This document shows, piece by piece, positions 18,790-18,940 of a DNA stretch of 64,000 nt; position 1 is the stretch's first letter, and each line of letters starts with the position of its first letter. The notes beneath the pieces are model-generated. The model searched no databases, had not been told where the DNA came from, and saw only the letters and a list, made by a program, of their open reading frames with translations. Location: the sequence record OR532803.1; one strand, written 5' to 3'. The position numbers and the translations under genes are program-made. The DNA comes from Klebsiella phage RCIP0009.

Positions 18790-18940
18790 ATTTTGATCAA
18801 TAATACTTGATCTGATCAAATTTATGATCTATAATTTATTAATTAATAATTATTTTACTACAATGATCATTGTAGGTCAAGTACTAAAATCAATAAATTT
18901 TATATAATTTAGATCTGATCTATAGATCATTAGATCTACT
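18790..18940. promoter_or_regulatory. AT-rich divergent intergenic region carrying a dense GATC cluster and a sigma70-like promoter
   Basis: Nine GATC sites fall within about 145 bp, including the 12-bp palindrome GATCTATAGATC. TTGATC-17-TATAAT lies at 18808..18836, oriented toward gene 55. Confidence 0.5.

Follow-up and report, generated by a model that had tools for sequence, protein, structure and literature searches.

We examined a cluster of GATC sites in a 64,000-nucleotide stretch of Klebsiella phage RCIP0009 (OR532803.1; hereafter the window, whose positions are used unless another record is named). The cluster lies in the spacer between rnh, which encodes RNase H / flap endonuclease, and gene 55, which encodes the late sigma factor, and it is the rnh|55 copy of a three-copy, approximately 300-bp, extremely AT-rich non-coding cassette of the genus Slopekvirus. 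Over positions 17700-20200 the window shares 99.6-99.9% identity with over 100 Klebsiella phages of this genus (including KP27, KP15, Matisse, Miro and BL02), which belongs to the T4-type Straboviridae, and it represents a KP27/KP15-like T4-type Klebsiella phage. Window positions correspond to KP27 (HQ918180.1) positions minus 12430, and whole-genome counts were made on p4515, a complete genome of the same genus (174,369 bp). Because rnh is the first gene of a leftward block in which 31 kb of replication genes all lie on the minus strand, and gene 55 opens a rightward plus-strand block, the spacer between them is a major point of transcriptional divergence. The locus is laid out as follows:

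17779-18714, minus strand: rnh (RNase H / flap endonuclease)
18715-19018, no strand: rnh|55 intergenic cassette, 304 bp, GC content 0.22, one of three paralogous AT-rich islands
18795-18829, no strand: left GATC group, four sites (18795, 18809, 18814 and 18826), with the palindromes TTGATCAA (18793-18800) and TTGATCTGATCAA (18807-18819)
18858-18875, no strand: perfect 18-bp palindrome CTACAATGATCATTGTAG, centred on the GATC at 18865-18868
18912-18936, no strand: right GATC group, four sites (18912, 18917, 18925 and 18933), with GATCTATAGATC (18917-18928) and two AGATCT
19019-19546, plus strand: gene 55 (late sigma factor)

An initial annotation of this DNA had described nine GATC sites within about 145 bp of an extremely AT-rich spacer of about 300 bp, palindromes among them and a roughly 20-fold excess over expectation. 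These statements held up: the nine sites span 142 bp (18795-18936), two of the positions given for them (18794 and 18864) each being off by one, and the palindromes are present. In the 151-bp core (18790-18940), which has a GC content of 0.19, the expected number of GATC is 0.24 from mononucleotide shuffles and 0.82 from dinucleotide-preserving shuffles, and none of 5000 shuffles reached nine. The excess is 11- to 37-fold, so that 'about 20-fold' was a fair description, and 62% of the G+C of the core falls within GATC. The cluster is the densest 150-bp interval for GATC in the 64 kb (runner-up 5) and also in the p4515 genome (runner-up 7), where GATC occurs at 6.6 per kb, 1.8-fold above the mononucleotide expectation and 1.0-fold under a Markov model. 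Among other palindromic tetramers in p4515, a strong depletion is seen for CTAG (80 sites; observed/expected 0.35 under the Markov model and 0.12 by composition) and a moderate one for AGCT (0.58); GATC is not avoided.

We then compared the cluster with other AT-rich DNA by merging all 100-bp intervals with a GC content of 0.25 or less, which yielded nine patches genome-wide. Only three of the nine exceed 300 bp, and those three alone are GATC-rich, the six shorter ones having 0-1 GATC each:

Island at rnh|55: 9 GATC observed, 0.6 expected
Island upstream of uvsY, outside the window: 6 observed, 0.45 expected
Island between gp3 and the plus-strand gene KP27_206, outside the window: 9 observed, 0.5 expected

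In none of the three islands did any of 5000 shuffles reach the observed count, and the excess is specific to this tetramer: the islands together hold 24 GATC, as against 0-5 for each of the 23 other tetramers composed of one G, one A, one T and one C. The islands are paralogues. The rnh|55 island aligns with each of the other two over 230-270 bp with local scores approximately 8-9 standard deviations (sd) above shuffles; the gp3/uvsY pair is weaker (z of 3.8 in the same orientation and about 5.8 inverted). They also share 12-14-mers that are absent elsewhere in the genome, such as TTTATGATCTATAAT and TTTAGATCTGATCT. The alignable sequence is only about 65% identical, and only about 4-5 GATC columns are common to the islands, the remainder being island-specific. 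Since many GATC sites were therefore not inherited from the duplication, this argues for repeated gain of GATC within the islands.

The three islands are also the three least stable 100-bp intervals of the genome by nearest-neighbour free energy, at -93, -96 and -101 kcal/mol (the last being the rnh|55 island), compared with a genome mean of -132.7 kcal/mol (sd 6.1) and -111 kcal/mol for the next-best interval. Cumulative GC skew has two V-shaped minima, one at the rnh|55 island and the other next to the gp3 island, and both of these islands lie at transcription strand switches. KP27_206, which is transcribed from the gp3 island in the direction opposite to the surrounding late genes 3, 2 and 4, encodes 262 amino acids (phrog_7322; p4515 165728-166516, KP27 100806-101594, outside the window) and is 70-80% identical in RB43-like phages. 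We considered it as a candidate initiator and rejected it, as it has no match of known function in Pfam, PDB or PHROG.

The repeated nature of the cassettes is visible in metagenomic assemblies. A 142-kb Slopekvirus contig begins inside the uvsY island and finishes inside the gp3 island, as would be expected of an assembler at repeats. The IMG/VR contigs 3300045988_041714 and 3300045988_015308, from Slopekvirus-like and RB43-like phages, have ends approximately 110-165 bp from uvsY or gp3, inside cassettes. The repeated cassettes are assembly breakpoints in both Slopekvirus-like and RB43-like metagenome assemblies.

The annotation of the KP27 depositors and our own scans agree on four sigma70-like promoters in the rnh|55 spacer. 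These, together with the segment between the inner two, are:

18745-18772, minus strand: proximal leftward promoter, TTGACT-16-TACAAT, no GATC inside, predicted start about 18738
18807-18835, plus strand: inner rightward promoter P1, TTGATC-17-TATAAT, predicted start about 18842
18836-18851, no strand: A/T-only 16-bp core TTATTAATTAATAATT, separating the opposed -10 hexamers of promoters P1 and P_L
18852-18880, minus strand: inner leftward promoter P_L, TTGACC-17-TAAAAT, facing promoter P1, predicted start about 18845
18968-18995, plus strand: proximal rightward promoter for gene 55, TTGATT-16-TATAAT, no GATC inside, predicted start about 19002

Promoter P1 is the TTGATC-17-TATAAT element that the initial annotation had correctly reported as carrying GATC in its -35 hexamer and spacer; a third GATC abuts its -10 hexamer (TGATC-TATAAT). 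P_L carries one GATC in mid-spacer, and promoters homologous to it, likewise with a spacer GATC, occur in the gp3 island and in the cassettes of RB43-type phages described below. The predicted starts of the two inner promoters coincide within 3 nucleotides (nt), and the 16-bp core between them is a candidate melting site. This arrangement is common to the paralogues: each island has four to five near-consensus sigma70-type (early) promoters, and the crossed inner pair with a TTATTAATTA core is conserved in all three. In the uvsY and gp3 islands the opposed -10 hexamers are separated by 14-15 bp of A/T that include TTATTAATTA, with predicted starts no more than 1-2 nt apart.

GATC takes up recurrent positions in these promoter modules, namely immediately before the -10 hexamer (TGATC-TATAAT), within the -35 hexamer or adjoining it (TTGATC, GATC-TTGAAT) and in mid-spacer. 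The TGATCTATAAT motif (TGATC-TATAAT) occurs five times genome-wide, every time inside one of the three islands. Among the 32 promoters annotated in KP27 1-100 kb, GATC is found only in promoters P1 and P_L and in none of the 28 outside the island, and across the islands six of ten strong promoters contain GATC. The right GATC group (18912-18936) can be aligned to the gp3 island's second rightward promoter module (GATC-TTGAAT-N13-GATC-TATAAT), and it looks like a decayed copy of that module in which further GATC would have been gained.

The surroundings of the 24 island GATC consist of A/T flanks with a roughly two-fold excess of TAGATC, TAGATC/GATCTA being present at 15 of the 24 by hand count from the flank list; no extended consensus beyond A/T flanks was found around these sites. 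Spacing in the rnh|55 cluster is irregular (5, 8, 12, 14, 39 and 47 bp). DNA folding gave an overall z of -3.3, driven by local GATC palindromes, and we rejected CTACAATGATCATTGTAG as an RNA or DNA structural element because the palindrome is not conserved in the paralogous islands. No terminators were found in 18600-19100, an Rfam scan of 18500-19200 with E up to 1 returned no RNA family, and no GC stem-loop of the PeSL type overlaps the island promoters. PeSL-like composites (aaaaagcccTTGCAT...GGGCTTT..TATATT) occur elsewhere in the genome. Approximately 15 composite terminator/promoter motifs aaaaagcccTTGCATtcgtgcaGGGGCTTTgtTATATT, none with GATC, are annotated in KP27 as 'putative middle promoters', among other places at 12568-12596, 43065-43093, 58699-58727 and 62841-62869 (KP27 24998, 55495, 71129 and 75271); they resemble the PeSL promoter-stem-loop cassettes of RB49/phi1 and T4-type phages.

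The open reading frame (ORF) at 4068-4844 on the minus strand, which the initial annotation had named as an N6-adenine methyltransferase-like protein, does encode a 258-residue protein resembling gamma-class N6-adenine methyltransferases, with the motifs DLCAGIGG and NPPF and a phrog_3820 match; its Pfam MTS/N6_Mtase matches are weak and at threshold, and it is annotated as 'hypothetical' in KP27 (KP27_035). We rejected it as the GATC methylase, as its gamma-class NPPF motif sets it apart from the D12/Dam class. A T4 Dam orthologue is encoded outside the window: it has 283 residues, belongs to the D12 class (Pfam 1e-34), matches the T4 Dam structure PDB 1yfj with an E value of 3e-85, and lies at KP27 150190-151041 (PMC5219037). 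Its orthologues are 99% identical within Slopekvirus, 80-87% in RB43-like phages and 57% in Tequatrovirus, and it appears to be the phage-encoded GATC enzyme, the product of ORF 4068-4844 being a second adenine methylase-like protein beside it. KP27 DNA is reported to resist several restriction enzymes (PMC5219037).

The only hint of methylation comes from the record of phage CPRSB (OM971649.1). Five of the nine cluster GATC are altered in it, mostly G to A, and over a total of 11.4 kb the changes affect 15 of 80 GATC, where about 7% would be expected, and fall exclusively on G or C. This record is full of frameshifts, with rnh, nrdA, nrdB, td, 46 and 47 split. We do not accept the five changes as evolutionary loss, given the frameshift-ridden record and the restriction of all changes to G/C; the pattern fits modification-linked base-calling error and is at most a hint of N6-methyladenine (m6A) in virion DNA.

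All reliable Slopekvirus records have an rnh|55 spacer of 98.7% identity or more with its GATC sites intact, and with sequences this close GATC conservation within the genus is uninformative. In KP13MC5-1 (OP617746.1 171677-174135), homology ends within the palindrome CTACAATGATCATTGT and is regained at the ATG of gene 55; in place of the right half of the island (145 bp) there are 2.46 kb of plasmid-like DNA, which include four 22-bp iterons and a Mob-like ORF. This is probably an assembly chimera and otherwise a real recombinant at the island. In Roth88 (PQ657829.1 32092-32693), gene 55 matches in two pieces over 602 bp rather than 525 bp and is annotated as two coding sequences, which suggests a small insertion or a sequencing error. 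We also scanned IMG/VR with the pattern GATCTATAATN{1,3}TATTAAT. Of the 116 stretches returned, only those in Slopekvirus contigs have a GATC-dense context, and the best of the others are coding regions.

Phages of the RB43 type (Pseudotevenvirus) carry a different element at the same places. It is approximately 250 bp long and consists of an AT-rich core TATATATAGAGAAAAATGTAG, GC-rich inverted arms GAGCGAAGCGA.../...TCGCTTCGCTC and outward sigma70 promoters, and each genome has it three times, at the syntenic positions of the Slopekvirus islands (rnh|55, the region before uvsY, and between gp3 and the KP27_206 homologue). In RB43 the copies are:

Cassette at rnh|55: stretch L002, 1677-1997
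Cassette upstream of uvsY: stretch L152, 1240-1490
Cassette on the gp3 side: stretch L167, approximately 1245-1545

Copies within one genome are highly similar (z of 33-38), whereas comparison with the Slopekvirus cassette at the same site gives a z of about 0. The two kinds of cassette are therefore alike in their sites, their size, their AT-rich centre and their flanking outward sigma70 promoters, which often have one spacer GATC, and differ in that the RB43-type sequence is unrelated, has GC-rich inverted arms in place of the GATC groups, holds 2 GATC per copy and has a GC content of 0.32-0.33. Both genera keep three homogenized cis-elements at conserved positions, with complete sequence turnover between the genera. 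No other observation points as strongly to one function common to the cassettes and tied to lineage-specific factors, with which it would co-evolve.

We next considered whether the cassettes resemble known replication origins. In T4, oriF and oriG are approximately 100 bp each and combine a promoter with an AT-rich unwinding element, where an R-loop formed by the transcript serves for priming; oriE requires an early promoter; and all three are located where transcription changes strand and nucleotide skew shifts (Kreuzer and Brister, PMC3016281). The islands are like oriF and oriG in that a promoter is directed into DNA that is very rich in A+T and melts easily (the -10 hexamer of promoter P1 is followed by 16 bp of pure A/T), at a strand-switch or skew-shift location. 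Sigma70-type promoters are predicted in them; an origin of the oriE type would depend on the use of such promoters in the early mode. The T4 record places oriF at the start (5' end) of uvsY, which is exactly the position of the uvsY island. The parallel is incomplete. The oriF and oriG promoters are of the MotA-dependent middle type, whereas those of the islands are of the sigma70 early type, and no MotA box (WWTGCTTYA, at most one mismatch) was found in 18715-19018; the islands have two facing promoters where oriF and oriG have one reading into the unwinding element; and oriF and oriG are mutually unrelated in sequence, whereas the Slopekvirus islands are paralogues. Similar to oriE, the gp3 island is near the gene 3/2/4/53/5 strand switch, and KP27_206 beside it is comparable to repEA/repEB, an early-oriented small gene among late genes. 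This likeness concerns the gp3 paralogue and not the rnh|55 copy. T4 oriE lies within gene 5 and has evenly spaced 12-nt iterons, whereas a search of the rnh|55 island for such iterons found only two-copy direct repeats of 8-9 nt at irregular spacing.

With the E. coli oriC/dnaA promoter region, the island shares an AT-rich unwinding region in which GATC is very dense (9 sites in 142 bp), pair spacings that SeqA prefers (pairs 12, 21 and 31 bp apart) and a supply of Dam, here from both phage and host. Unlike the island, oriC has DnaA boxes, and T4-type replication does not use DnaA. The rnh|55 spacer has no exact DnaA box (TTWTNCACA) and a lone one-mismatch match at 18726, outside the cluster, and no convincing box was seen in the other two islands. 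For the oriC 13-mer GATCTnTTnTTTT, the best island match has 2 mismatches (GATCTATAATTTA at 18826), which by rough estimate is at chance level in AT-rich sequence starting with GATCT; we judged neither GATCTGATCTATA nor GATCTATAATTTA significant as an oriC 13-mer, given the AT-rich composition and the number of sites tested. Neither IHF sites nor the T4 late promoter TATAAATA were found in the rnh|55 island. Because it lacks DnaA boxes, IHF sites, MotA boxes and late promoters, the rnh|55 element is, strictly speaking, of neither the oriC type nor the T4 oriF/oriG type.

We tentatively favour the reading that the cassettes are promoter-plus-unwinding-element replication origins whose activity depends on Dam methylation, to which we give a little less than an even chance. 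Its support is circumstantial and consists of the paralogous cassettes, the stability minima, the two skew minima and the oriF position of the uvsY copy. To that extent the proposal in the initial annotation of an origin or methylation-gated region is retained, though not as an origin of the oriC or strict T4 oriF/oriG type; of its T4 parallel, the promoter with an unwinding element and the uvsY copy at oriF stand, whereas a MotA box is missing here and a GATC cluster is missing from T4 oriF and oriG. Its further suggestion of a switch for the late sigma factor is not favoured, as the same cassette precedes uvsY and KP27_206 and half of its promoters point to rnh.

Under the origin reading, host RNA polymerase would start at the crossed promoters on injected DNA and melt the A/T core, and the two outward transcripts could form R-loops that prime leading strands in both directions while doubling as early mRNAs for the rnh block and gene 55. 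N6-methyladenines would further weaken the duplex and would be positioned where sigma70 contacts the spacer and hexamers. Fork passage would leave the cluster hemimethylated, which may change promoter use, recruit host SeqA or both, and thereby inactivate the element when the phage goes over to recombination-dependent replication. We regard as doubtful, and clearly less probable than the origin reading itself, the more specific proposal that these are three concertedly evolving origin cassettes in which facing early promoters prime bidirectional replication and the density of Dam sites serves as an epigenetic once-only timer through hemimethylation and SeqA, with the RB43-like genus doing the same by means of an unrelated cassette. 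If this were true, T4-type phages would keep the positions of their origins and replace the sequences.

Several observations weigh against the origin reading. In RB43, RB16, Miller and Pantoea phage Phynn the rnh|55 spacer keeps its synteny and length but has only 1-2 GATC, so the cluster at this site is conserved only within the genus; conservation in relatives, which the initial annotation had proposed as a check, is thus seen in near-identical Slopekvirus sequences and fails in the sister genus. The RB43-type cassettes work with their 2 GATC each although RB43-like phages also have Dam, and a dense GATC cluster is therefore not required for cassette function. T4 origins have no motif in common (PMC3016281). 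There is one GATC within 150 bp on either side of T4 oriF and one within the same distance of oriG, and the spacer between rnh and gene 34 of T4 has none. T4 origins are therefore not marked by clustered GATC. T4 oriG lies inside gene 34, 2.2 kb from the start of rnh, and oriE inside gene 5 is 3.4 kb from gene 3, so that their correspondences with the rnh|55 and gp3 islands are of neighbourhood only; an exact match is seen for uvsY/oriF alone. Gene orientation is a confounder of the GC-skew minima. Sequestration by SeqA would appear to work against a phage, except where the shut-off of its origins is programmed. A divergent junction is in any case expected to have strong early promoters with AT-rich UP elements, and promoter content alone therefore needs no origin.

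This last point leads to the main rival explanation, which is possible yet doubtful: the islands may be a purely transcriptional hub of the strongest immediate-early promoters, serving the rnh block, gene 55, uvsY and KP27_206, with GATC conferring Dam sensitivity and no role in replication. Such a hub would, for example, be active on fully methylated injected DNA and silenced on hemimethylated or SeqA-bound daughters. The near-consensus -35/-10 pairs with 16-17-bp spacers speak for it, as do the positions of GATC at the edges of hexamers and inside spacers, which are contacted by sigma70 regions 3 and 4, the placement of all three cassettes immediately before genes of the early or middle class in T4, and the presence of the Dam orthologue. 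Dam-sensitive promoters are an established class, exemplified by IS10 pIN and dnaA P2, in which GATC overlies the -35 hexamer, the spacer or -10-proximal positions, as it does in promoters P1 and P_L. The islands differ from these examples in having up to three GATC per promoter, extra flanking sites, crossed pairs and three paralogous copies. A hub would leave unexplained why exactly three homogenized cassettes occupy the same sites in both genera, why the RB43-type cassettes hold a large untranscribed inverted-repeat/AT core between outward promoters, why the starts coincide face to face when promoter strength is lost to mutual occlusion, and why four GATC (18912-18936) lie in a decayed promoter module without a good -10 hexamer. 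The origin and transcriptional readings do not seem mutually exclusive, because T4 origins are themselves promoters.

It is also conceivable, but improbable, that the W-GATC-W repeats serve as binding sites, in the manner of iterons or operators, for a DNA-binding protein specific to the lineage and encoded by phage or host, and are the counterpart of the GAGCGAAGCGA arms of the RB43 type, with methylation incidental. The GATC groups flank the AT core where the GC-rich inverted arms do in RB43-type cassettes, many sites form short palindromes, TAGATC/GATCTA is over-represented (the 15 of 24 sites counted by hand), and cassette turnover between the genera suggests co-evolution with a trans-acting factor. 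However, binding sites would be expected to share more than A/T flanks at irregular intervals, and no candidate protein was identified: KP27_206 is too similar between genera whose cassettes are unrelated and has no recognizable domain.

More improbable still is a neutral origin, by which a GATC-bearing promoter module was duplicated and homogenized by gene conversion, inflating the count without selection. The paralogy of the islands and the 12-14-mers they share would accord with this, but most GATC are gains specific to one island; GATC is by far the most frequent G/C-containing tetramer (24 against at most 5 for those of the same composition) despite the approximately 65% identity among paralogues; and the RB43-type cassettes independently have GATC in the spacers of their flanking promoters.

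The pac site of phage P1 has two groups of TGATCA/G hexamers (4 + 3 over 162 bp) flanking the terminase cut, and Dam methylation licenses its cleavage. A comparable packaging site is the least probable explanation: the layout here is similar to P1 pac/oriR (4 + 1 + 4 W-GATC-W over about 145 bp, with two groups of GATC-containing hexamers) and each phage carries its own Dam, but the Slopekvirus element is present in three copies rather than at a single site, lacks an IHF consensus and DnaA sites and has promoters embedded in its repeats, headful packaging by T4-type gp16/gp17 is not known to require pac, deposited Slopekvirus genomes begin at many different positions, and the RB43-type cassettes at the same sites hold only 2 GATC.

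GATC-rich control regions and origins made of a promoter and an unwinding element are known kinds of element, whereas the three-copy combination with crossed promoters is undescribed in T4-type phages. In the searchable literature we found neither GATC clusters nor cassettes nor origins described for Slopekvirus or RB43-like phages, and no published account of the three-copy RB43-type cassette. Almost nothing is known of how T4-type phages other than T4 choose their origins, and those of T4 have no motif in common. A recurring lineage-specific cassette at conserved positions, one of them the oriF site, would give origin candidates in Slopekvirus, whose members are widely used as Klebsiella therapy phages, and in RB43-like phages. 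The cassettes also account for recurrent assembly breaks in these genomes. If their role is only transcriptional, the architecture is still unusual, with crossed promoters whose starts coincide and GATC abutting their hexamers. A timing role for methylation has so far been documented mainly for oriC, phage P1 and transposons; this phage, with a dense GATC cluster and a Dam of its own, is a candidate case in which adenine methylation may time early promoters or origin firing in a virulent phage.

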